Positions 50,753-64,000 of a DNA stretch of 64,000 nt are shown piece after piece. Where the stretch lies: positions 7,529 through 71,528 of the forward strand of contig CAWFXH010000011.1 in assembly GCA_963819705.1 (NCBI GenBank), given 5' to 3'. Within the stretch, counting starts at the first letter, position 1; each line of letters begins with the position of its first letter. The DNA comes from an uncultured Gammaproteobacteria bacterium (GTDB taxonomy: Bacteria > Pseudomonadota > Gammaproteobacteria > Steroidobacterales > Steroidobacteraceae). Position numbers and translations under genes: made by a program. The notes under the pieces were generated by a model. The model searched no databases, was not told where the DNA came from, and saw only the letters and a program-made list of their open reading frames with translations.

Positions 50753-52039
50753 ATGGCGAAATCGAGGACCCGGCGACCCCGGCCGCGCAATGCGCTTTAC
50801 GCGCAATCGGGGGGCGTCACCGCCGTCATCAACGCGACCGCCTGCGGCGTGATCGAGGCCTGCCGCAGGCACCGGAGCCGCATCGGCCGCCTGTACGCCG
50901 GACACGACGGCATCGTCGGCGCGCTTACCGAGGATCTCATCGACACCGGCCGCGAGAGCGTGGCGACGATTCGCGCGCTGCGCCACACGCCGTCCGGCGC
51001 CTTTGGCTCGGCACGCTACAAGCTCAAGGACCTCGAGCGCGATCGCGCCAAGTACGAGCGCCTGATCGAGGTGTTCCGCGCGCATGACATCGGCTACTTC
51101 TTCTACAACGGCGGCAACGACTCGATGGACACGGCGCTGAAGCTCAGCCAACTGGGCGCACAGGCCGGCTATCCGGTCGCCTGCATCGGCATCCCGAAGA
51201 CGGTCGACAACGACCTGCCGGTCACGGACTGCTGCCCCGGCTTCGGCTCGGTCGCGAAATACGTCGCCGTATCGACGCTCGAGGCATCCCTGGATGTCGC
51301 GTCCATGGCCAGGACCTCGACGCGCGTCTTCATCCTCGAGGTGATGGGACGCCACGCGGGCTGGATTGCGGCCGCGGGCGGCCTGGCCGCGCGCAACGCG
51401 GGCGACCCCCCGCACATCATCCTGTTCCCGGAAATCCCGTTCGAGCGCGAGCGATTCCTGGCGCGCGTGAAGGAGACCGTCGAACGGCAGGGTTACTGCG
51501 TGGTCGTCGCTTCCGAGGGCACGCGCGACGCCGAGGGAAAGTTCCTGTCGGACATGGGAACCAAGGATGCCTTCGGCCACGTCCAGCTCGGCGGCGTGGC
51601 ACCCACGCTCGCACAGATGGTCAAGCAGGCACACGGCTACAAGTACCACTGGGCGCTCGCCGATTACCTGCAGCGCTCTGCGCGCCACATCGCCTCGCGC
51701 GTGGATGTCGAACAGGCCTACGCCGTCGGCCGCGCGGCAGTCGAACTCGCACTCGCGGGCAAGAACGCGGTCATGCCGGTCATCCGTCGCAAGTCATCGA
51801 AGCCCTATCGATGGGATATTGTCTCGGTCGGCATCGAGGCCGTCGCCAATCGCGAAAAAATGGTGCCGCGGAATTTCATCACCGGTGACGGCTTTGGCAT
51901 CACCGCCGCCGGCCGGCGCTACCTCGAACCGTTGATCGAAGGCGAGTCTTATCCGCCTTACAAGAACGGAATTCCCGCGTACGCGACGCTCAAGGGCGCG
52001 CGCGTGCGCAGGCGGCTCAAGACGACCTTCGTGGTATGA
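50753..52039 (+). CDS. pfp: Pyrophosphate-dependent 6-phosphofructokinase
   Basis: 428-aa ORF in the PFK family. The phosphoryl-donor determinants read GGNDS (Asp at the position of E. coli Gly104) and PKTVDND (Lys at Gly124), the published PPi-specific pattern. Confidence 0.88.
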   Translation: MAKSRTRRPRPRNALYAQSGGVTAVINATACGVIEACRRHRSRIGRLYAGHDGIVGALTEDLIDTGRESVATIRALRHTPSGAFGSARYKLKDLERDRAKYERLIEVFRAHDIGYFFYNGGNDSMDTALKLSQLGAQAGYPVACIGIPKTVDNDLPVTDCCPGFGSVAKYVAVSTLEASLDVASMARTSTRVFILEVMGRHAGWIAAAGGLAARNAGDPPHIILFPEIPFERERFLARVKETVERQGYCVVVASEGTRDAEGKFLSDMGTKDAFGHVQLGGVAPTLAQMVKQAHGYKYHWALADYLQRSARHIASRVDVEQAYAVGRAAVELALAGKNAVMPVIRRKSSKPYRWDIVSVGIEAVANREKMVPRNFITGDGFGITAAGRRYLEPLIEGESYPPYKNGIPAYATLKGARVRRRLKTTFVV

Positions 52040-52063
52040 TTTTCGTTTCCTGGGAGTAATTTC

Positions 52064-54100
52064 ATGTCGATGCAAGCAGCGCTCTGGCTCGCGATCGCGG
52101 CCGGCGTGGTCGCCATTCTCTACGGCGTGTTCTCGGCGCGCTGGATCCTCGCCCAGCCCGCGGGCAGCGCGCGCATGCAGGAGATCGCCGCGGCGATCCA
52201 GCAGGGCGCCGGTGCATACCTGAACCGTCAGTACACGACGATTGCGATCGTCGGCACGCTGCTCTTCGTCGTGCTCGGCTTCGCGCTCGACTGGTATACG
52301 GCGGTCGGCTTCGCGCTCGGCGCAGTCCTCTCGGGCTCCGCGGGCTACATCGGCATGAACGTCTCCGTGCGCGCCAACGTGCGCACCGCCCATGCCGCCA
52401 GCGTCGGCCTCAATCCGGCGCTGCAGGTCGCGTTCCGCGGCGGCGCGATCACGGGGCTGCTGGTCGTCGGCCTCGGGCTCATCGGCGTCGCGGCTTACTA
52501 TGCCGTCATGATGCGGCTCACGGGCGACAGCGACCACTCGCTGCATGCGCTCGTCGGGCTCGCCTTCGGCGGCTCGCTGATTTCGATCTTCGCGCGCCTC
52601 GGCGGCGGCATCTTCACCAAGGGCGCCGACGTTGGCGCAGACCTGGTCGGAAAGGTGGAGGCCGGGATTCCCGAGGATGACCCGCGCAATCCGGCCGTGA
52701 TCGCGGACAACGTCGGCGACAACGTCGGCGACTGTGCCGGCATGGCCGCAGACCTGTTCGAAACCTACGCAGTCACGGTCGTCGCGACCATGCTGCTCGC
52801 GGGCCTGATGATGAAGGATCTCGGCAACGCGGCGGTGCTCTACCCGCTCGTGCTCGGCGCGGTCTCGATCGTCGCCTCGATCGTCGGCACCTTTTTCGTC
52901 AAGGTGAAGGAAGGCGGCAAGATCATGGGCGCGCTCTATCGCGGCGTGATCGTTTCTGGCGTCATCGCGGCCATCGCCTACTACCCGATCACCAGGATGA
53001 TGCTGGGCGAAGCGGCAATGCCGCTTTATTACTGCGCGCTGATCGGGCTCGGCCTGACGGCAGCGATGATCTGGATCACGGAGTACTACACCGCGACCGA
53101 GTTCAAACCCGTGCGTTACGTCGCCGAGGCTTCGCAGACCGGGCATGGCACGAACGTGATCGCGGGCCTCGCGGTGTCGATGAAGTCGACCGCGCTGCCG
53201 GTGCTCTCGATCTGCGCAGCGATCTGGGGTGCCTACTCGCTGCAGGGCCTGTACGGCATCGCAATCGCGGCGACCGCCATGCTGTCGATGACGGGCATGA
53301 TCGTGGCGCTCGATGCTTACGGCCCGATCACCGACAACGCCGGCGGCATCGCAGAAATGAGCGGCTTGCCGAAGGACGTGCGCAAGATCACCGACGCGCT
53401 CGACGCGGTCGGCAACACGACCAAGGCGGTGACCAAGGGCTACGCAATCGGCTCCGCCGGCCTCGCAGCCCTGGTGCTGTTCGCCGACTACACGCACAAC
53501 CTGGAGATCGCCGGCAAGCTCGAGGCATTCAGCCTCTCTGACCCGGCGGTCATCATCGGCCTCTTCATCGGCGGCCTCGTACCTTACCTCTTTGCCGCGA
53601 TGGCAATGGAGGCCGTTGGCCGTGCAGCCGGCTCCGTCGTCATCGAGGTCCGGCGCCAGTTCCGCGAGATCAAGGGCATCATGGAAGGCACCGGGAAGCC
53701 AGACTATTCGCGCGCCGTGGACATGCTGACCCGCGCGGCAATCCGCGAGATGATCCTGCCGTCGTTGCTTCCGATCCTGATCCCGGTGGTGGTCGGCTTT
53801 GGAATGAACTTCCTGCTCGGCCCGGGCGCCGGCATCCGCGCTCTTGGCGGCGTGCTGATCGGCACGATCGTGACGGGCCTGTTCGTTGCTATCTCGATGT
53901 GCACCGGCGGCGGTGCCTGGGACAATGCCAAGAAGTACATCGAGGAAGGCCATTTCGGCGGCAAGGGATCGGAAACGCACAAGGCGGCCGTCACCGGCGA
54001 CACCGTCGGCGACCCGTACAAGGACACCGCGGGACCGGCGATCAACCCGCTGATCAAGATCATCAACATCGTGGCGCTGTTGCTCGTTCCGCTGTTGTAA
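52064..54100 (+). CDS. hppA: Membrane-integral H+-translocating pyrophosphatase, K+-independent type
   Basis: 678-aa polytopic ORF with PPase motifs ([28 protein letters not shown]). [10 protein letters not shown] carries the Lys/Thr pair diagnostic of K+-independent enzymes. Confidence 0.95.
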
Positions 54101-56020: not shown

Positions 56021-56441
56021 TGCTCCTCAATGAATGCCGGGCTCACAATCGATTCGGCCCGGTCCACTGCGGCTGCGCCCAGTGGCGAGTCATCGGGGGT
56101 AACTTCGCGATTTCGCTTCAGGTTTGGCCCCGGCACCGCTGCAACTACGTACTGCACGAGATGAGACGACGCCTGAGGGTATCCTGCCGGTCGGTCGCGG
56201 GTCTGTGCGGGAGCGAACATGGCATTCGCCTTGCACCGCGGCCGCAAAGGAGGCGTGTGCGCCCCTTTTCAGGTACTGCGCATTCGCCTGCTTCGACCTC
56301 GAGAAAGCCGCTCCTTGGTCGCATTTATTCCGCGCCCTTATGTCAACAGTCCGCGCGCGCCGAGCATTTTCGGATTAGTTTTTGTGACTGCAGTCGCAGG
56401 TTGTGTCGCGCGCGCGGAGCGCTTGCGAATCGAGGAAAGGG

Positions 56442-57911
56442 ATGTCCACAGCGGAAGTCACGGGCGCTCCTCCGCGCCACGACGAGACGGCCAGTTTTCG
56501 CGTCGTGTCCGCGTCGATCGCGTGGGCGCGTCCTGGAGCCGGTGAGCCGCCGTCGATTGCACTCGTCAGGGAACATCTGAATTCCGCCGTCGTCGCCGGA
56601 GCACTGCTGTTGACGGCGGCACTTCACGGGCAACGCGTCGACGGCCCGTACCTGGCGCTCGCTGCCTGCGCCTACGCGGTGTCGCTCAAGGTGATGACGC
56701 AGCCGAGGCTCGAACGTGTTGGCAACAGGTCGGACTGGGGACGCATCCTCCGCCATCGCGCGATCGAGTGGGCATGTGTCGCAGGCATCCTGCTGCTCGC
56801 CGGCTACTTCCTGCGGGTCACCCGCCTCTTTCCCGGCCGCGTGCTGTTGACCTGGCTGCTCGCAACGCCGTTCGCGCTCGCCGCCGCGCACGGAGCGGCG
56901 CGGCTCCTCGCCGCTCGCGTGTTCAGGCGCAGCGGCGCGCAGCGCCGGCTGGTCATCGTGGGCGCAAACCGGGTCGGTGCCGAGCTCGCCACGAGGCTCG
57001 CCGAAGCGCCGTGGCTCGGCACTGTGGCGGGATTCTTCGATGACCGGCGGCTGGAGCGCCTGCCGCCGGCAACGCGGCCGCGACTGCTCGGCAAGTTTGC
57101 CGACCTGCCAGAGTACGCGAGGCAGCAGGGCGTGCACGTCATTTACGTCTGCCTGCCGATGTCAGGCCACCCGAGGATTCGGGCGTTGCTTAACTTCCTC
57201 GGAGATACCACGGCCTCGATCTACTTCGTACCCGACCTGTCGGCTTTCGACCTGATGCAGGCCCGCTTCGGTCAGATCCGCGGCATGCCCCTTGTCGCCG
57301 TGCGCGAAACCCCATTCTGCGGCATGGCCGGTGTGCTGAAGCGCGGCAGCGACATTCTGCTCGCGACGACCGCATTACTGCTGGTCGCGCCGATGCTGAT
57401 CGTGATCGCAATCGGCGTGAAGCGATCCTCGCCCGGGCCGGTTTTCTTCAGGCAGCGCCGGTATGGCCTCGATGGCCGCGAATTCCTCGTCTATAAGTTC
57501 CGCACGATGACCGTTTGCGAGGACGACCCGCTGATGCAGGCGACCCGCTTCGACCTCAGGGTCACGCCGGTGGGCGCGTTCCTGCGGCGCACGTCGCTCG
57601 ACGAGCTGCCCCAGCTCCTCAATGTTCTCGAGGGCAGCATGAGCCTTGTCGGCCCGAGGCCGCACGCCGTCGCGCACAACGAGCGCTACCGCAAGCTGGT
57701 GAGCGGCTACATGCTGCGGCACAAGGTGCGCCCCGGCATCACCGGTCTCGCCCAGGTCAACGGGCTGCGTGGCGAAACGGTGGACGTCGAGAAGATGCGC
57801 CAGCGCGTCGCCTTCGACCTCGAGTACCTCAAGCATTGGTCGCTCGGCCTCGACCTGCGGATCCTCCTGAAAACCGCCCGCCTCGTGTGGAGCGACAAGA
57901 ACGCCTACTGA
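56442..57911 (+). CDS. Undecaprenyl-phosphate hexose-1-phosphate transferase (WcaJ/GumD-like priming glycosyltransferase)
   Basis: ATG at 56442 after GAGGAAAGGG (the track ORF starts at GTG 56403). N-terminal TM block, then the bacterial sugar transferase domain ([26 protein letters not shown]...[21 protein letters not shown]...[10 protein letters not shown]). Confidence 0.88.
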
Positions 57912-57923
57912 AGGCAACCAGGC

Positions 57924-58811
57924 CTACCAGTCGTCGTTCGCGGCATAGCCGAGTTCGACGAGGAGCGGGCCGGCTATCCGCTTGAACAGGCGCCGGTCAT
58001 TTTCGTCCAGGTCCCGCTGCCAGCGGCCCAATGAGGCCGTGCTGACGGCCGTGAGCGCTTCCGGATTCTGGGCAAAGCGCGTGGAGTCACGAAACGGCGA
58101 TGCCGCTCCCGCGTGCGCGAGCATGGCCTCGTCCCAATCCTCTCCGAGGAAGGCCATCAGCCTCTCGAGGGCCGGCCGCGGATTCAGGACCAGCTCTTCG
58201 TAGCGGACGGTATGAAAGCGCGGATCGTTCCACCAGCGGCGCGAGCCCTCGATGTCGCGAACCCAGCGCCGGGCGCAGCCGGCGATGGGTTTCCAGGTGT
58301 CGAGCGGGACCAGCCTGCCGTTCTCGACGCGATGGCGCGGATGGGTCCGCAGTGAACAGGCGACGTCGCGGCCATCGCGCAGCACCTGCACGAACCGCGT
58401 CTCGGGAAAGCAGCGGAAGATCGAGGCGATGTGCCCGATATTGCGCGGTGTCTTCTCCGCCCAGCGCGCCTTTCCCGCCTTTCGCATGCAGAGCGCGGCA
58501 AAGCCCTCGATGAACTCCGGGCGCGAGCGGGCCCGGTCGTAGATCGCGCGCATCTCCTCACGGCCAAAGCCGAACCTGTCAGCGAGCGCATCGGGATCGA
58601 GCGCCCGCCGCCTGAATACGCTTGACTCCGGACCGCAGCAGATCCGGTGGTGCGAGTCGAGCATCATCCGGAGCAGCGTCGTCCCCGAACGACCGCAGCC
58701 ACCGAGCACGATTGGCGTCAAGCCGGGCGGGTGCCCGATCACGAACGAATCGGCCGGATGGCCGAGACCGATCGCGCCGCCGATCATCCTGAATAATCCC
58801 GGTGCGCCCAT
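57924..58811 (-). CDS. TPST-like (tyrosylprotein-sulfotransferase/RaxST-like) sulfotransferase
   Basis: 295-aa ORF. From memory, it is colinear with animal TPST across the catalytic domain: 5'-PSB LGGCGRSGTTLLRMMLDSHHRICCGPE; VLRDGRDVACSL; VRYEELVLNPRPALERLMAFLGEDWDEAML; SLGRWQRDL...IAGPLLVELGY. Confidence 0.8.
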   Translation of the reverse strand: MGAPGLFRMIGGAIGLGHPADSFVIGHPPGLTPIVLGGCGRSGTTLLRMMLDSHHRICCGPESSVFRRRALDPDALADRFGFGREEMRAIYDRARSRPEFIEGFAALCMRKAGKARWAEKTPRNIGHIASIFRCFPETRFVQVLRDGRDVACSLRTHPRHRVENGRLVPLDTWKPIAGCARRWVRDIEGSRRWWNDPRFHTVRYEELVLNPRPALERLMAFLGEDWDEAMLAHAGAASPFRDSTRFAQNPEALTAVSTASLGRWQRDLDENDRRLFKRIAGPLLVELGYAANDDW

Positions 58812-58880: not shown

Positions 58881-59870
58881 GTGGTCATGTCCGTCACGCG
58901 CGTCCGCGCCGCCGCAATCCTCCTGTGCATGGTGCTGCCGCGGGCCGCCGAGGCCGCGGACGATCCGGTCGTGCTGCCGCCCGGCATCGCGACCCACGTT
59001 GACGGGCGCGCGCCCATCGAGTCGCTCTACCGCAGTGCTCTCGGCCTCGTCGAAAGGGGCTGGACCGTGGACGTGATCACGGAGTCCTCGCCCGCGGGCA
59101 CGGCGGCGGGCCTGCCGATCATCGCGCTGCGCTCGCCGAAGTCCGGGCCGGCAGTCTGGATACTCGCGGGAATCCATGGCGAGGAACCCGCCGGGCCGAA
59201 CGCGGTCGCGGCGACCATCGAAGAAATTGCAAAGCTCGGCGCTGTCCGGCCAGTGGTGCTTCTGCCACTGCTGAACCCGCAGGGTTATGCCCGAAACTGG
59301 CGCTACCTCAATGTTCCCGTCTATTCCGAAACCATCGACGGGCAGAGCGTCGGCGATTCCTCGCACCTGCTTCCTGACGCCGGGAATCCGGCACAACCGC
59401 GGGCGGCGGCGGCCTCGAGCCCTGAGGCGGATGCGATTACCGCCTATGTCCTTTCCCGCCTCGCGGACTACCCGCCCGTCTGCAGCATCGACTTGCACGA
59501 GGACAACCTGATCGACGAGGGCTACGTCTACTCGCAGGGCGCCGAAGGCGCCGGGGACCCCCTCGCCATCGCGGCCGTGGCCGTGCTGAGGGAGAACGGC
59601 GTACCCATCAAGACGGAGGGCATGACGCGCTTCGACGAAACGGTCGTGCACGGTATCGTCGGGCCGGTCACCGACAGCTCGATTGACGAACTGATGAGTG
59701 CGCGCCGAATTGTCGTGGGCGGCGTGCCGCGGCCCGGACCGGCCGCGCACACCGTGCTCGTGTTCGAGACTCCGGCTGCTGCCCTCCCGCTGGAGCAGCG
59801 CATCGCGGCCCACGCCGCCCTGTTGCGCCGGCTCGCGGCGATCCTGGCTTCGGCGCCTGACGGGAACTGA
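58881..59870 (+). CDS. Secreted M14-like zinc carboxypeptidase / AstE-AspA-fold protein
   Basis: 329-aa ORF (GTG 58881 or ATG 58887). Signal peptide ...LLCMVLPRAAEA. Zinc-ligand-like HxxE (AGIHGEEPAG) and a later DLHED. Family assignment rests on motifs only. Confidence 0.65.
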   Translation: MVMSVTRVRAAAILLCMVLPRAAEAADDPVVLPPGIATHVDGRAPIESLYRSALGLVERGWTVDVITESSPAGTAAGLPIIALRSPKSGPAVWILAGIHGEEPAGPNAVAATIEEIAKLGAVRPVVLLPLLNPQGYARNWRYLNVPVYSETIDGQSVGDSSHLLPDAGNPAQPRAAAASSPEADAITAYVLSRLADYPPVCSIDLHEDNLIDEGYVYSQGAEGAGDPLAIAAVAVLRENGVPIKTEGMTRFDETVVHGIVGPVTDSSIDELMSARRIVVGGVPRPGPAAHTVLVFETPAAALPLEQRIAAHAALLRRLAAILASAPDGN

Positions 59871-59880
59871 TCCGCCGCCG

Positions 59881-61944
59881 ATGCATCCGCCGACCGCACC
59901 CAAGGCCGTATTCAACGAGTCCATCGGCCTCATCAACGCCGGCGAGCTGGGAGCCGCCGAGGCGCGCTGCCGCGCCGCGCTCACGAAATACCCGGGCGAC
60001 ATCAACTTGCAGGCCCTGCTCGGCGCTTTGCTCGTCAAGCGGGATCGCCGCGAGGAGGCGGAACAGCTTCTGCGCGGGGTGATCGCCGCCGCTCCCTCTT
60101 TTGCCAAGCCCGCGGAGGACCTGGGATTTCTCCTGTTGCAGGAGGGTCGGGCCGCCGATGCCCTGCCCTTCCTCGAACGCGCAACCCGCCTCGATCCGAC
60201 TCTCGAGCGCGCCTGGTTCACGCTCGGCAAGGCGCTCGCGCTCCTCGGCCGCGGGCAGGACGCGGATGCCGCATTCGAGAAGTGCTTCGAGCGCTCGCCA
60301 GAACGGCGGCTCATGGCGCTCGCGGCCGAGCACCAGAAGGAGGGCCGCATCGACGAAGCCGAGCGGCTGTACCGCCGCGTGCTGCGCCAGAGCCCGCGCA
60401 ATGTCGATGCCCTGCGCCTGCTCGCCCTGATCGCGGTACGGGCCGATCGTGGCGACGACGCCGAGCTCCTGCTGCGGCAGGCGATCGGGATCGCGCCTGA
60501 CTTCATCCTGGCGGTCCTCGACCTCGGTCGGCTGCTCAAGGACCAGGACCGCTACGGCGAAGCCCTCGATTGCTTCGACCGCGCGATCGCGCTCGATCCG
60601 TCGCATCCCCCGGCACACTACCTGCGGGCCTCGACTCTCGCGCGGGCGTCATTCACCGACGACGCCATTGAAGCGTACCGGCGGTGCCTCGAGCTGAAGA
60701 CCGATCATATCGGAGCGCTGCTCGGACTCGGCCACATGCTGAAGGCCGTCGGACGCTACGACGAATGCGTCGCGTCATACCAGGCGTGCATCCGGCATGC
60801 GCCGGACTTCGGCGAGACCTACTGGAGCCTCGCAAACCTCAAGACCTACCGCTTCGACGACCAGGCGGTCGCGGAGATGGAGAAGCGCGCTGCGGCCGGC
60901 GGCGAGAATGAGCAGTCGCAGGTGAATTTCCTGTTCGCCCTCGGCAAGGCATACGAGGACCGTCGTGACTTTGAGCGCGCCTGGCACTTTTACCGCAGCG
61001 GCAACGCGGCACAGCGGTCGCAGATCGCCTACGACCCGGTGCAGACCGAAGTCATGAACGACCGGCTCATCGAGGTCTACACCGCGGAATTCCTGCAGTC
61101 ACTGCGCGGCGCCGGGAATCCCGACCCATCGCCGGTCTTCATCCTCGGCCTGCCGCGTTCGGGCTCGACCCTGCTCGAACAGATCCTGGCGAGCCACGGC
61201 CAGGTCGAGGGCACCAGCGAGCTACCGTACATCGGCCGCGTCGCGACGTCGCTCAATCGCAACCGCGCAGATGGCGTCAACTACCCGGAAGCCATGCGCG
61301 AGCTCGCGCCGGCAAACGTGGCGGCGCTCGGCGCCGATTACCTCGCCCAGGCGCACATGCACCGCCGGACCGGCGCGCCGAGATTCATTGACAAGATGCC
61401 GAATAACTTCCCCAATGTCGGCCTGATCGCGGCCATCCTGCCGAACGCGAAAATCATCGATGCGCGGCGGCATCCGCTCGATGCGTGCCTGTCCTGCTAC
61501 CGGCAGCTGTTCGCCAAGGGCCAGAACTTCACCTACGACCTGACGGAGATCGGGGAATATTACCTGCAGTACCAGCGGATGATGAACCACTGGTCGCGCG
61601 TGCTGCCCGGACGCGTGCTCACCGTGCAATACGAAGAAGTCGTCAGCAATTTCGAGGCGCAGGTGCGGCGGCTGCTCGCATTCTGCGGCCTGCCCTGGGA
61701 CGACGCCTGCCTGAAATTCCACGAGAGCGACCGCCCGGTCAGGACACCGTCGGCCGAACAGGTGCGCCAGCCGATCTACGACCGTTCGATCGGCCACTGG
61801 CGGCACTACCAGCGCTACCTCGACGAGCTGATCGAGGTCATCGATCCGATCCGGGACCGCTACCGGCGCTACGAGCCCGCGGTCGGCGACTCCGCCCTCG
61901 CCGGGGGCGAGAGTCGCCCGGGAATGGCCCCGGGAGGAACGTAG
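59881..61944 (+). CDS. TPR-repeat protein fused to a C-terminal TPST-like sulfotransferase domain
   Basis: ATG at 59881 within track ORF 59698..61944. ~430 aa of TPR-type helical repeats, then LGLPRSGSTLLEQIL (5'-PSB), LPNAKIIDARRHPLD, VQYEEVVSNFEAQVRRLLAFCGLPWDDACLKFHE and SIGHWRHY. Starts 10 nt after the M14-like gene. Confidence 0.85.
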   Translation: MHPPTAPKAVFNESIGLINAGELGAAEARCRAALTKYPGDINLQALLGALLVKRDRREEAEQLLRGVIAAAPSFAKPAEDLGFLLLQEGRAADALPFLERATRLDPTLERAWFTLGKALALLGRGQDADAAFEKCFERSPERRLMALAAEHQKEGRIDEAERLYRRVLRQSPRNVDALRLLALIAVRADRGDDAELLLRQAIGIAPDFILAVLDLGRLLKDQDRYGEALDCFDRAIALDPSHPPAHYLRASTLARASFTDDAIEAYRRCLELKTDHIGALLGLGHMLKAVGRYDECVASYQACIRHAPDFGETYWSLANLKTYRFDDQAVAEMEKRAAAGGENEQSQVNFLFALGKAYEDRRDFERAWHFYRSGNAAQRSQIAYDPVQTEVMNDRLIEVYTAEFLQSLRGAGNPDPSPVFILGLPRSGSTLLEQILASHGQVEGTSELPYIGRVATSLNRNRADGVNYPEAMRELAPANVAALGADYLAQAHMHRRTGAPRFIDKMPNNFPNVGLIAAILPNAKIIDARRHPLDACLSCYRQLFAKGQNFTYDLTEIGEYYLQYQRMMNHWSRVLPGRVLTVQYEEVVSNFEAQVRRLLAFCGLPWDDACLKFHESDRPVRTPSAEQVRQPIYDRSIGHWRHYQRYLDELIEVIDPIRDRYRRYEPAVGDSALAGGESRPGMAPGGT

Positions 61945-62471
61945 TCGAAGATGAAATTGATCCGGTCCGCGACGCCCTTGTTCATGACGCTGTGGACCTT
62001 CTGGTTGTTGATCTCGTAAGCCTCGCCGACTTCGAGCTGGTAGGGGCGCCCGTCGATCATGAATCGCACGCGCGGGTTGGTCACGATCGGGATGTGGATG
62101 CGGTGGCCGGCGCCGAACGACGGGTGCGAATCACGGTGCGGGATGATGCGGCCGCCGGCGAGCAGCTTGGCGGCCATCGCGCGGATGATGGTCCCGCCCG
62201 GCGGATACCACTTGCCGATGATCTCGTGCATCACCGGCACCGCAACCTTGGCCAGCCGGTCCCAGCCGGGCTGCTTGCTCACCTCGACCGCCGGCCAGCC
62301 GTCGACTTCGGCGAACAGCAGCACGATCGATCGCGTCTGCTCGTGCACTTCGTAGTCGTTCTGGCGCTGGACGTTCTCCTTCCAGGCCGCCTCGTCCTGC
62401 CCGAGGATGGCGTCGCCAAGTGCCGCCATCTCGATCTTGCCGAAGCTGCGGAGCGGGACTCCGATGTCCAT
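61869..62471 (-). CDS. Aspartyl/asparaginyl beta-hydroxylase-family 2OG/Fe(II) oxygenase
   Basis: ATG at 62471 (MDIGVPLRSFGK...), a 1-nt overlap with the receptor stop (TGATG). Facial-triad-like HRD...H (IIPHRDSH ... NQKVHSV). 200 aa. The upstream part of track ORF 61869..62609 lies inside the receptor gene. Confidence 0.8.
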   Translation of the reverse strand: MDIGVPLRSFGKIEMAALGDAILGQDEAAWKENVQRQNDYEVHEQTRSIVLLFAEVDGWPAVEVSKQPGWDRLAKVAVPVMHEIIGKWYPPGGTIIRAMAAKLLAGGRIIPHRDSHPSFGAGHRIHIPIVTNPRVRFMIDGRPYQLEVGEAYEINNQKVHSVMNKGVADRINFIFDYVPPGAIPGRLSPPARAESPTAGS

Positions 62472-64000
62472 CAGAACTCGTAGCGGAACTGCAACCCCAG
62501 CGTGCGCGGCCGGTTGATCGACTGGCGCTGCGGTGTGGCCCAGCGATTGCTCAAGAACAGGTTGGCCCGTTCGTCCGTGAAGTTTTCGATGAAGAGCGAG
62601 GTCGTCCAATGTTCGCCCTCGAGGCCGACCCGGAGGTCCCCTGTCTGGTAGGCGTCCTGCACCTGCACGCCGGCTCCGCCGACAACTGACTCGATGCCTT
62701 CGAGGTTGTTGACCGACTCACCGACGTAAGCGAGGTCGATCCGCCCGAACGGCTGAGCGTCAAACAGCCGGCCACGTGAGCGGTACTCAAGCCCGAGCGT
62801 CGCACTCCAGTCCGGCGTCAGCGGCAGGCGCGCACCCTTCGTGACCGGGATTTCGTACGTGACGTTGCTGGAATCCGTGAGCGACAGCACGGTGGCCTGG
62901 GACACTTTCCCGTCGTTCCAGCCCAGTGTCGCATCGACCTGCCAGGCGTCGTTGACGACAAACGAAAACTCGGTTTCGACGCCGTTGATTTCGGCGGACG
63001 GCAGATTGACGTAACCGAGCTGGAACACCAGCGGCTGCGGGTCCTCGATCTGGACCGCGAAATCATCCCATTTCATCGTGTAGGCCGCGATATTGAATCG
63101 CAGCCGGTTTCCCAGCCACTCCGTCTTGGCGCCTATTTCGACATTCGTGAGCTTGTCTGACTTGTACACGTGCGGAAGGATCGAGATGGGTCGCACGGGA
63201 TTGGCGCCGCCGACCCGGAATCCCTCCGAATATGTCGCGTACACCATCCGATCATGGTTGAAGCGGTAAGTCAGGTTGAGCTTGCCGACCGAGCCGCTCT
63301 CATCCGAATGCGTGTTGGCGTCAGTGAGCGAAAAGCCGCTGAATCCCTCCGGCGACTCCTGGTGAAGCCCGAACTTGCGGTCGTATTCGAACCAGCGACC
63401 GCCGGCGGTGATCGTGAAGTTGTCGGTCACATCGAAGCCAAGCTCCCCGAAGACCGCCTTCTGGTCGAGCTCAGTATCGTACTTCCCGATGAACCAGGCT
63501 TCGGTCGGAGCCAGCGTGTTGTTGTAGACGTTGTATTCCAGGTAACTGAAGTAGGCGAAGGCTGGCGTGTTCTCGTAGCCGCGGACGTAACTGTCGAACT
63601 CGGTGTGGCCCGTCTCCTTGCTGTAGAAAACGCCGGCCAGCCAGGACCAGCGGCTTTCGGCGTCGTGGGACGACTGCAGTCGCGCCTCGAACGTGGTGAT
63701 GTCGGTATGTTCGTGGTTGGTCGCGAAGCCGCGCGGATCGCCGCCGAAGTCGTAGGCGAGCGAGTTGTAGTAGATCGCGGCCTGGTTGAAGCTGAACTCG
63801 TAGTCCGTCGCATCCGCCTCATAGGCAAACTTGCGGTCGAAATACGAACCGGATACCACGAGGTCGCCGAAAGGCAGCGAGGCGTTGAGGGTCAGCCCGA
63901 CCTGGTACCAGCGGTCGTTGAGGTTCTCGTTCTCGAAGCGCGCCTGCTTGAGGTCGCCCGCGCCGACCGTCACGTCGCCATGACCGCCGGCATGTGCATC
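62471..64000 (-). CDS. TonB-dependent receptor, C-terminal ~509 codons (the gene continues beyond the right edge)
   Basis: The frame is open to the window edge upstream of the track start at 63973. Beta-barrel-type alternating sequence ends in the OMP C-terminal motif LGLQFRYEF. Confidence 0.88.
   Translation of the reverse strand, partial: DAHAGGHGDVTVGAGDLKQARFENENLNDRWYQVGLTLNASLPFGDLVVSGSYFDRKFAYEADATDYEFSFNQAAIYYNSLAYDFGGDPRGFATNHEHTDITTFEARLQSSHDAESRWSWLAGVFYSKETGHTEFDSYVRGYENTPAFAYFSYLEYNVYNNTLAPTEAWFIGKYDTELDQKAVFGELGFDVTDNFTITAGGRWFEYDRKFGLHQESPEGFSGFSLTDANTHSDESGSVGKLNLTYRFNHDRMVYATYSEGFRVGGANPVRPISILPHVYKSDKLTNVEIGAKTEWLGNRLRFNIAAYTMKWDDFAVQIEDPQPLVFQLGYVNLPSAEINGVETEFSFVVNDAWQVDATLGWNDGKVSQATVLSLTDSSNVTYEIPVTKGARLPLTPDWSATLGLEYRSRGRLFDAQPFGRIDLAYVGESVNNLEGIESVVGGAGVQVQDAYQTGDLRVGLEGEHWTTSLFIENFTDERANLFLSNRWATPQRQSINRPRTLGLQFRYEF

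Follow-up and report, generated by a model that had tools for sequence, protein, structure and literature searches.

A tyrosylprotein sulfotransferase-like gene in an uncultured gammaproteobacterium and its candidate acceptors

Introduction

The stretch of DNA analyzed here (64,000 nt, hereafter the window) is part of contig CAWFXH010000011.1 of assembly GCA_963819705.1, a 2.85-Mb metagenome-assembled genome (MAG), 92% complete, of an uncultured gammaproteobacterium assigned to the Steroidobacteraceae. Towards its end, at positions 57924..58811, the minus strand carries an open reading frame (ORF) for a putative sulfotransferase that would use 3'-phosphoadenosine 5'-phosphosulfate (PAPS) as sulfate donor. 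This gene is flanked on one side by a gene for a WcaJ-type sugar-phosphate transferase and on the other by a gene for a secreted M14-like peptidase, followed by genes for a second sulfotransferase with an array of tetratricopeptide repeats (TPR), an AspH-like oxygenase and a TonB-dependent receptor (Table 1). A first reading of the bare sequence by a model (the original prediction) had described the product as a stand-alone sulfotransferase that is colinear with the animal tyrosylprotein sulfotransferases (TPSTs) and with the bacterial enzyme RaxST, which implied a tyrosine or peptide substrate. To our knowledge, bacterial tyrosine sulfation rests on one system, RaxST-RaxX. Here, the gene, its product, its genomic surroundings and its family were compared with both types of enzyme and with other sulfotransferases, and the possible acceptors were weighed against each other.

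The gene and its relationship to animal TPSTs

The third-position GC content of the sulfotransferase ORF (0.83) is similar to that of the flanking genes, and more than 120 database clusters hold orthologues of the same length, 295 aa, at 74-87% identity; because of these two features, the ORF is judged to be a real gene under purifying selection. Pfam assigns the product to Sulfotransfer_3 (PF13469) at 1.6e-30, with a weaker match to Sulfotransfer_1. Neither a transmembrane segment nor a signal peptide can be recognized within the first 35 residues, and Ala118 stands in the position of C156 of human TPST2, the partner of the luminal C96. Because the signal peptide and this disulfide cysteine are both lacking, a soluble, cytoplasmic location, as originally proposed, fits the predicted protein. 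Scans for promoters and terminators in the vicinity of the gene gave no informative result.

A phmmer search against all PDB sequences aligned residues 32-290 of the protein with residues 32-289 of the human TPST2 chain (E 2.6e-18, 69 bits, 26-27% identity). The seven top matches are all chains of human TPST2, TPST1 or tick TPST (E 2.6e-18 to 2.5e-15, query residues 31-290) and span nearly the entire TPST catalytic domain. The matches that follow drop to E 2.5e-5 or worse and comprise the olefin-synthase sulfotransferase domain 4GOX, mycobacterial Stf9 and the CurM sulfotransferase; mycobacterial Stf1 is also among the proteins matched. When human TPST2 was searched against all ORFs of the genome, the best match was again the 57924..58811 ORF (65 bits, with other sulfotransferases at 41 bits or less), making the two proteins reciprocal best matches within this genome. 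At the level of profiles, a comparison by hhalign of a family profile built from 45 members with TPST2 gave a probability of 99.8% (E 2e-28, 239 columns). Additionally, an AlphaFold2 model made with a 45-sequence alignment (mean pLDDT 92.3, pTM 0.89) was used for a Foldseek search, in which the thirteen best matches are TPST2, TPST1 and tick TPST chains (E about 1e-13, TM-score 0.61-0.64, 25-27% identity), followed by the CurM and olefin-synthase sulfotransferase domains (E 3e-10 to 5e-10, TM-score 0.60-0.65). On these comparisons, the predicted protein is a full-length, colinear homologue of animal TPST, at a level far above chance, which bears out one half of the original claim. The four TPST-like blocks on which that claim had been built are all present (residues 37-62, 143-154, 202-233 and 263-264 with 279-289).

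Features common to the query and to animal TPST1/TPST2 and tick TPST (EC 2.8.2.20; PDB 3AP1, 5WRI/5WRJ, 9WWE, 8W5Z) include the fold, the 5'-phosphosulfate-binding and 3'-phosphate-binding motifs, the catalytic Arg, Glu and Lys, and the YEELV, FLG and LGY blocks of the C-terminal half. There are also differences. Animal TPST is a type II Golgi membrane protein, whereas the query is predicted to be soluble and cytoplasmic, and the TM-score between them is only 0.61-0.64. Furthermore, the query has no partner for the C96-C156 disulfide, does not keep the acidic-peptide-binding residues and presents a Gly in place of TPST2 Ser285. The second-best structural neighbours, the CurM and olefin-synthase "activating" sulfotransferase domains (PDB 4GBM, 4GOX), show weak, partial sequence similarity to the query; they are domains of polyketide synthase (PKS) megasynthases whose acceptors are beta-hydroxyacyl chains bound to an acyl carrier protein, whereas the query has no PKS context.

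Catalytic and substrate-binding residues

The catalytic residues of TPST2 are R78, E99, K158 and S285, with E99 acting as the catalytic base (PMC5562738). Residues of the query were mapped onto those of TPST2 through alignments and not by coordinate superposition. On this mapping, the first three residues have putative counterparts in Arg41, Glu62 and Lys120, and both PAPS-binding motifs can be located (Table 1). Within the 45-member family alignment, R41, S42, G43, T44 and T45 of the 5'-phosphosulfate-binding loop are invariant or nearly so (Arg41 in 44 of 45), and R145 and S153 of the 3'-phosphate-binding motif are invariant. The fourth residue, TPST2 S285, aligns with Gly262, and a conserved Ser is found two residues upstream of this glycine.

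The residues through which TPST2 binds its peptide substrate follow a different pattern. R105 alone is kept in the query, with R101 replaced by Ser, R122 by Gly and W113 by Asp, and the corresponding columns are variable across the 45-member family. In TPST2, the T198-A200 strand pairs with the substrate backbone; in the query it gives way to a longer segment that is predicted to form a beta-hairpin (residues 160-169). As aligned, the residues of a TPST-style acidic-peptide groove are mostly not conserved in the query. The original prediction had stated that similarity limited to the PAPS-binding motifs, with no conservation of the peptide-binding residues, would speak against it. The outcome is mixed: the similarity extends well beyond these motifs, whereas most of the residues that hold the peptide in TPST are replaced in the query.

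Table 1. Positions of the sulfotransferase gene, its predicted functional residues and the neighbouring genes in the window.
Feature	Position	Strand	Remarks
WcaJ-type undecaprenyl-phosphate glucose phosphotransferase	56403..57911	plus	TIGR03023, 479.5 bits (cut-off 410.75)
Putative TPST-like PAPS-dependent sulfotransferase gene	57924..58811	minus	295 aa, ATG start, monocistronic
Predicted 3'-phosphate-binding motif, residues 145-153 (RDGRDVACS)	58353..58379	minus	R145 and S153 correspond to TPST2 R183 and S191
Lys120 codon, putative counterpart of TPST2 K158	58452..58454	minus	Invariant among 45 family members
Glu62 codon, putative counterpart of the TPST2 base E99	58626..58628	minus	Glu in 40 of 45 family members
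Predicted 5'-phosphosulfate-binding loop, residues 37-45 (GGCGRSGTT)	58677..58703	minus	Arg41 corresponds to TPST2 R78 in alignments
Secreted M14/AstE-like zinc peptidase	58881..59870	plus	Pfam; divergent from the sulfotransferase gene, 69-nt spacer
TPR-array sulfotransferase, about 687 aa from Met at 59881	59881..61944	plus	Pfam; orthologue length 687 aa
Asp/Asn beta-hydroxylase-family (AspH-like) oxygenase	61869..62609	minus	PF05118 at 3.7e-10
TonB-dependent receptor	62471..64000	minus	Runs off the window

Comparison with RaxST

RaxST of Xanthomonas oryzae pv. oryzae, the RaxX tyrosine sulfotransferase encoded in the raxX-raxSTAB cluster, is likewise a cytoplasmic bacterial PAPS sulfotransferase of similar size, and it has the superfamily in common with the query at the profile level only. 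With the RaxST sequence taken from Fig. S6 of Liu et al. (2019), BLASTP detected no significant pairwise similarity (best E 0.056 over 19 residues), and a search of RaxST against the ORFs of the genome returned no homologue even at E 10. The hhalign comparison of the family profile with RaxST is weak and partial (probability 89%, E 2e-6), and in this alignment RaxST has no Glu or Lys opposite Glu62 and Lys120. RaxST scores about 26 bits to TPST1, compared to the 69 bits of the query to TPST2, and the RaxST homologues reported by Liu et al. (2019) are about 40% identical. Kinship with RaxST was therefore rejected, since a remote relation is the most that BLASTP, hhalign and the phmmer search of the genome indicate; to judge from the sequence, the protein is not a RaxST-type enzyme and is much closer than RaxST to animal TPST.

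The context differs from that of RaxST as well. The lack of raxX, raxA or raxB partners in the original description stands as far as these were searched: no precursor ORF or peptidase-ABC exporter adjoins the gene, whose neighbours encode the WcaJ-type transferase and the M14-like peptidase, and raxX itself was not searched by sequence. A genome-wide search with Peptidase_C39 gave one marginal match (22 bits) in a 401-aa frame, which was discounted as a peptidase-ABC exporter because the frame is too short for such a transporter, and a RaxB-like exporter in the genome was consequently rejected. Liu et al. (2019) described raxST homologues without raxX, and mostly without raxA/raxB, in many phyla and varied contexts, and pointed out that such orphans could have other substrates. 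Comparable orphan enzymes had been recorded before, both in that study and in the annotations of the JGI pipelines, which label many orthologues of the query "protein-tyrosine sulfotransferase".

Gene neighbourhood and distribution

The WcaJ gene is convergent with the sulfotransferase gene, the two stop codons being 12 nt apart, and we tentatively infer a functional link between them. The genes for the M14-like peptidase and the TPR-sulfotransferase form one divergent unit, while those for the AspH-like oxygenase and the TonB receptor are located on the opposite strand. The neighbouring TPR-sulfotransferase is a much more distant relative of TPST (39.8 bits to the query, 25 bits to TPST2). 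The label "stand-alone" in the original prediction is thus only partly apt: the gene is monocistronic, but the WcaJ gene lies 12 nt off, the TPR-sulfotransferase is encoded nearby and the genome holds about 15 Sulfotransfer_3 genes. No PKS, non-ribosomal peptide synthetase (NRPS) or lipid-biosynthesis genes were found beside the sulfotransferase in the window or in the orthologous loci. A polysaccharide cluster within the window was considered and rejected, as the region from 37 to 54 kb holds housekeeping genes and WcaJ is an isolated priming enzyme with no such cluster around it. A close paralogue of this WcaJ is encoded at C1:391243-392724 (738 bits), and a third, shorter phosphoglycosyl transferase gene opens a polysaccharide/sulfotransferase cluster on contig C13.

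Orthologous loci, about 15 in number, encode sulfotransferases of 66-82% identity. The gene order receptor, AspH-like oxygenase, TPR-sulfotransferase, M14-like peptidase, in some cases a metallo-beta-lactamase (MBL)-fold protein, and sulfotransferase, here termed the island, recurs in about 12 of the 15. In many of these loci, 1-5 kb of other genes, often of the MBL fold, separate the M14-like gene from the sulfotransferase gene. The MBL-fold (Lactamase_B) gene found at this place in L013, L022 and many other orthologous loci encodes 430-500 aa, and locus L014 contains a 69-aa ORF in addition to it; the 69-nt divergent spacer in the window is compact because both the MBL-fold gene and the 69-aa ORF are absent there. 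At the other side, window positions 50753-54100 carry a gene for a pyrophosphate (PPi)-dependent phosphofructokinase followed by one for an H+-pyrophosphatase, and this pair, 90-95% conserved in the orthologous loci, represents a stable anchor beside the variable sulfotransferase region. Among the distant homologues examined, none is adjoined by WcaJ, the M14-like peptidase, the TPR-sulfotransferase, AspH or the receptor.

The distribution of these genes was assessed in 80 other genomes of the same GTDB family, covering 40 genera and including two congeners. At a threshold of E 1e-30, the sulfotransferase is matched in two of the 80 genomes, one of which is one of the two congeners. The M14-like gene is present in six, and five of these, including the other congener, lack the sulfotransferase. 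The congener with the sulfotransferase has no receptor gene and only a 136-aa remnant of the TPR-sulfotransferase. The possibility of a core family gene, which the more than 120 similar clusters had suggested, was rejected on the basis of these counts. The sulfotransferase gene is accessory, and the lineage that carries it is a narrow one among uncultured Gammaproteobacteria from soil (records labelled Steroidobacteraceae). Since the presence of the sulfotransferase does not track the island, the synteny of the island is weak evidence for a common pathway.

Sulfation and glycan genes of the genome

Many of the roughly 15 Sulfotransfer_3 genes of the genome encode TPR fusions of 520-750 aa. The closest paralogue of the query scores 69.5 bits, about equal to human TPST2, and adjoins two genes for glycosyltransferases (GT) of family GT4; two other short sulfotransferases adjoin a GT2 and an AlgX-like acetyltransferase. 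Where the context of the short single-domain sulfotransferases is informative, sulfation is tied to glycans in this organism. The presence of cysD and of a cysN-cysC (adenosine 5'-phosphosulfate (APS) kinase/CysN) fusion on contig C14 indicates that PAPS can be made by this organism. Both genes are found at about 10.6-27.3 kb of that contig (L101, L102), within a polysaccharide locus that encodes ManC, UDP-glucose dehydrogenase (Ugd), a CapD/WbpM-like protein and Wzz, and that also holds an epimerase and a sulfotransferase-like frame. This gene set suggests that the organism makes a sulfated envelope polysaccharide.

Two further observations concern the TPR fusions. For seven of the 26 TonB-receptor-like genes of the genome, a Sulfotransfer_3 gene, mostly a TPR fusion, is encoded no more than about 2 kb away, as at 59881-64000 of the window. 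Taken together, the 40-residue windows of these seven sulfotransferase-linked receptors are more Tyr-dense (5-8 Tyr) than those of most of the others (3-7), where the ranges overlap and the values are raw counts that ignore relatedness; one example contains GEFDYSDYSFYYDNLYTSGY. In addition, a 646-aa TPR-sulfotransferase paralogue at C1:569891-571831 shows a second similarity, to the AspH-like oxygenase (33.9 bits), and oxygenase and sulfotransferase modules may be fused in this protein.

The wider family

An exhaustive HMMER scan of 1.84 billion representatives retrieved 21,361 family proteins with a threshold of E 1e-3, of which 5,443 pass at 1e-10 and 182 at 1e-30. All but one of 270 fetched proteins match TPST2 too; the median score is 61 bits, and single-domain proteins reach about 100 bits. 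Relatives of 33-55% identity are found in named genomes of Acidobacteriota, Planctomycetota, Verrucomicrobiota and Chloroflexota, as well as of Mycobacterium, Phenylobacterium, Acetobacteraceae, Bathyarchaeia and Thermoplasmata. The family is large and already catalogued, yet uncharacterized. A literature search for a module of TPR-sulfotransferase, beta-hydroxylase and TonB receptor, or for the evolution of prokaryotic TPSTs, yielded nothing relevant.

Fusions were surveyed among the best 150 representatives, 42 of which are longer than about 380 aa. Within these 42, fusion to DUF1232 is the commonest (10), followed by TPR arrays (about five), FkbM-type methyltransferases (four to five), ornithine cyclodeaminase-like (OCD/mu-crystallin) domains (three), GT2 (two) and GT1 (one), and several contain additional sulfotransferase domains. 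The fused relatives are 35-45% identical to the query. One family protein presents the arrangement 3xGT2-TPR-sulfotransferase, and in Mycobacterium helveticum and two Mycobacterium sp. MAGs (L072, L078, L095) single genes encode GT2-TPR-sulfotransferases of 641-811 aa, whose sulfotransferase domain is 39-43% identical to the query. No fusion with a peptidase, an ABC exporter or a domain of the type seen with peptides that are made on the ribosome and modified after translation (RiPPs) or in peptide maturation was seen among the family members examined.

For distant homologues, a search with a 13-sequence alignment was employed and the immediate neighbours were counted at 63 distant loci. GT1/GT4 glycosyltransferases and D-Tyr-tRNA deacylase are found seven times each, methyltransferases and sulfotransferases four times each and asparagine synthase (AsnB) three times. 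In six loci of Chloroflexota/Chloroflexia MAGs (L065, L068, L077, L083, L087 and L091), a gene for about 147-150 aa is located immediately upstream of the family member. As the size of the upstream gene matches in these six loci, the seven deacylase neighbours are probably the same genes of one syntenic Chloroflexota/Chloroflexia clade and not independent associations.

Among characterized glycan-modifying enzymes, the rhizobial sulfotransferases NoeE and NodH act in the cytoplasm with PAPS and modify the sugar moieties of envelope or secreted glycoconjugates, and NodH likewise belongs to Pfam Sulfotransfer_3. The NCBIfam model for NoeE (NF052394) matches the query with 41 bits over residues 198-291 only, which is far under its cut-off of 500 bits and covers the C-terminal third; moreover, the query is not accompanied by nod genes. 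NoeI is an FkbM-family methyltransferase, and the fusions of FkbM-type methyltransferase and sulfotransferase in the family pair the same two modifications as NoeI and NoeE.

Proposed function and alternative acceptors

The protein is very probably a PAPS-dependent O-sulfotransferase of a prokaryotic TPST-like clade within Sulfotransfer_3. A fuller statement, tentatively preferred here and with a likelihood somewhat short of even, is that it is an active, soluble, cytoplasmic PAPS-dependent O-sulfotransferase with, most likely, a glycan acceptor. In the proposed mechanism, PAPS would be supplied by the cysD-cysNC genes of the genome and held by the GRSGTT loop together with the R145/S153 motif. 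Glu62 would act as the base that deprotonates the acceptor hydroxyl, while Arg41 and Lys120 would stabilize the in-line transfer of the sulfuryl group, after which 3'-phosphoadenosine 5'-phosphate (PAP) would leave. Judging from the context, the acceptor would be a sugar hydroxyl on an envelope glycan or a lipid-linked repeat unit, possibly one that is primed by the adjoining WcaJ-type transferase.

Several lines of evidence favour a glycan acceptor. These are the fusions with glycosyltransferases and FkbM domains in the family, the partial NoeE match, the glycan setting of the PAPS genes and of the other short sulfotransferases of the genome, the WcaJ equivalog next to the gene, in the window as in the closest orthologous loci, the loss of the TPST peptide-binding residues and, finally, the neighbours at distant loci, where GT1/GT4 glycosyltransferases are the most frequent functional class and are found with methyltransferases, sulfotransferases and AsnB. 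The tyrosine or peptide substrate implied by the original prediction is not upheld, given that the peptide-binding residues are lost and that the fusions and sulfation genes point more to glycans.

A number of observations weigh against a glycan acceptor or against the proposed mechanism. The nearest experimentally characterized relatives, by sequence and by fold, are tyrosine sulfotransferases, and no experimental work on this TPST-like family was found in the literature. The putative catalytic site is not identical to that of TPST2, and details of catalysis may differ owing to the replacement of Ser285 by Gly262. The fusion partners are heterogeneous, with DUF1232 as the commonest, and TPR arrays could equally dock proteins. 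Across phyla, no neighbour dominates at the 63 distant loci. As for WcaJ, its convergent orientation means that it is not co-transcribed with the sulfotransferase gene, and it adjoins or lies near the gene in the closest five or six orthologous loci (L021-L025) while being absent from most. In addition, the window between 37 and 54 kb is devoted to housekeeping functions (S-adenosylmethionine (SAM) cycle, adenylate kinase, PPi-dependent phosphofructokinase, H+-pyrophosphatase).

One alternative is a true bacterial tyrosylprotein or peptide sulfotransferase, which would resemble TPST or RaxST in function but modify Tyr (or Ser/Thr) on a different substrate, a protein or peptide that is encoded at an unlinked site and reaches the enzyme as a cytoplasmic precursor before export. 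It would agree with TPST1, TPST2 and tick TPST as the closest characterized relatives by sequence and fold, with the reciprocal best match of human TPST2 in the genome and with the retention of the catalytic R, E and K. The syntenic neighbours are also of a protein or peptide type (M14-like peptidase, AspH-like oxygenase, TPR-sulfotransferase), and orphan raxST homologues could use other substrates (Liu et al., 2019). This alternative is nevertheless unlikely, since R101, R122, W113 and the T198-A200 strand are not conserved and Ser285 is replaced by Gly, since neither a precursor ORF nor a peptidase-ABC exporter accompanies the gene (the C39 match being marginal and its frame too short) and since no fusion with a peptide-maturation domain occurs in the family. 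The neighbours themselves speak against it, as the M14-like gene is found in five genomes without the sulfotransferase, and the sulfotransferase is kept alongside a degraded TPR-sulfotransferase and without the receptor. A narrower form of the same idea, a prokaryotic counterpart of TPST that sulfates protein tyrosines in the cytoplasm before export, is decidedly unlikely; its candidate substrates would be envelope proteins with Tyr-dense, acidic stretches, as in the sulfotransferase-linked TonB receptors.

Similarly improbable is a small-molecule or lipid acceptor, such as a secondary metabolite, a membrane lipid, a quinone or an intermediate bound to an acyl carrier. Stf3, CurM-ST and the cholesterol or menaquinone sulfotransferases provide analogues for such a role, and the CurM and olefin-synthase domains reach TM-scores of 0.60-0.65, as high as those of TPST, at a lower root-mean-square deviation. 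Mycobacterial Stf9 and Stf1 are matched as well, the frequent fusions with the membrane-associated DUF1232 and the OCD/mu-crystallin fusions in three representatives could be read in the same direction, and the accessory, patchy distribution would suit an enzyme of this kind. Against this stand the lack of adjoining PKS, NRPS or lipid-biosynthesis genes in the window and orthologous loci and the weak, partial sequence similarity to CurM-ST and Stf9 (E 2.5e-5 to 1.6e-3).

Lastly, a pathway of the whole island, in which the TonB receptor, the AspH-like oxygenase, the TPR-sulfotransferase, the M14-like peptidase and the query would together yield a hydroxylated, sulfated peptide or envelope protein, is very unlikely despite the gene order that recurs in about 12 of the 15 orthologous loci, because all syntenic loci come from one narrow clade, so that the synteny may be inherited and not selected, 1-5 kb of unrelated genes intervene between the M14-like gene and the sulfotransferase gene in many loci, the presence of the genes across genomes is uncoupled and no distant homologue has these neighbours.

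Implications

Two corrections to the existing descriptions of this protein follow from the analysis: it is TPST-like and not RaxST-like, and the automatic label "protein-tyrosine sulfotransferase" is unsupported by its specificity residues or its context. Bacteria possess full-length homologues of TPST whose distance to the animal enzymes is much smaller than that of RaxST. If pre-export tyrosine sulfation were true of the enzyme described here, bacteria would have another kind of tyrosine sulfotransferase besides RaxST, separate from it in evolution, and this would bear on the origin of eukaryotic TPST. The family comprises tens of thousands of sequences from at least twelve lineages of bacteria and archaea, and the acceptor of one member, once settled, would annotate all of it. 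At stake is whether these genes account for sulfated envelope glycans, with roles in soil aggregation and in interactions with phages and hosts, or for a hidden protein modification.

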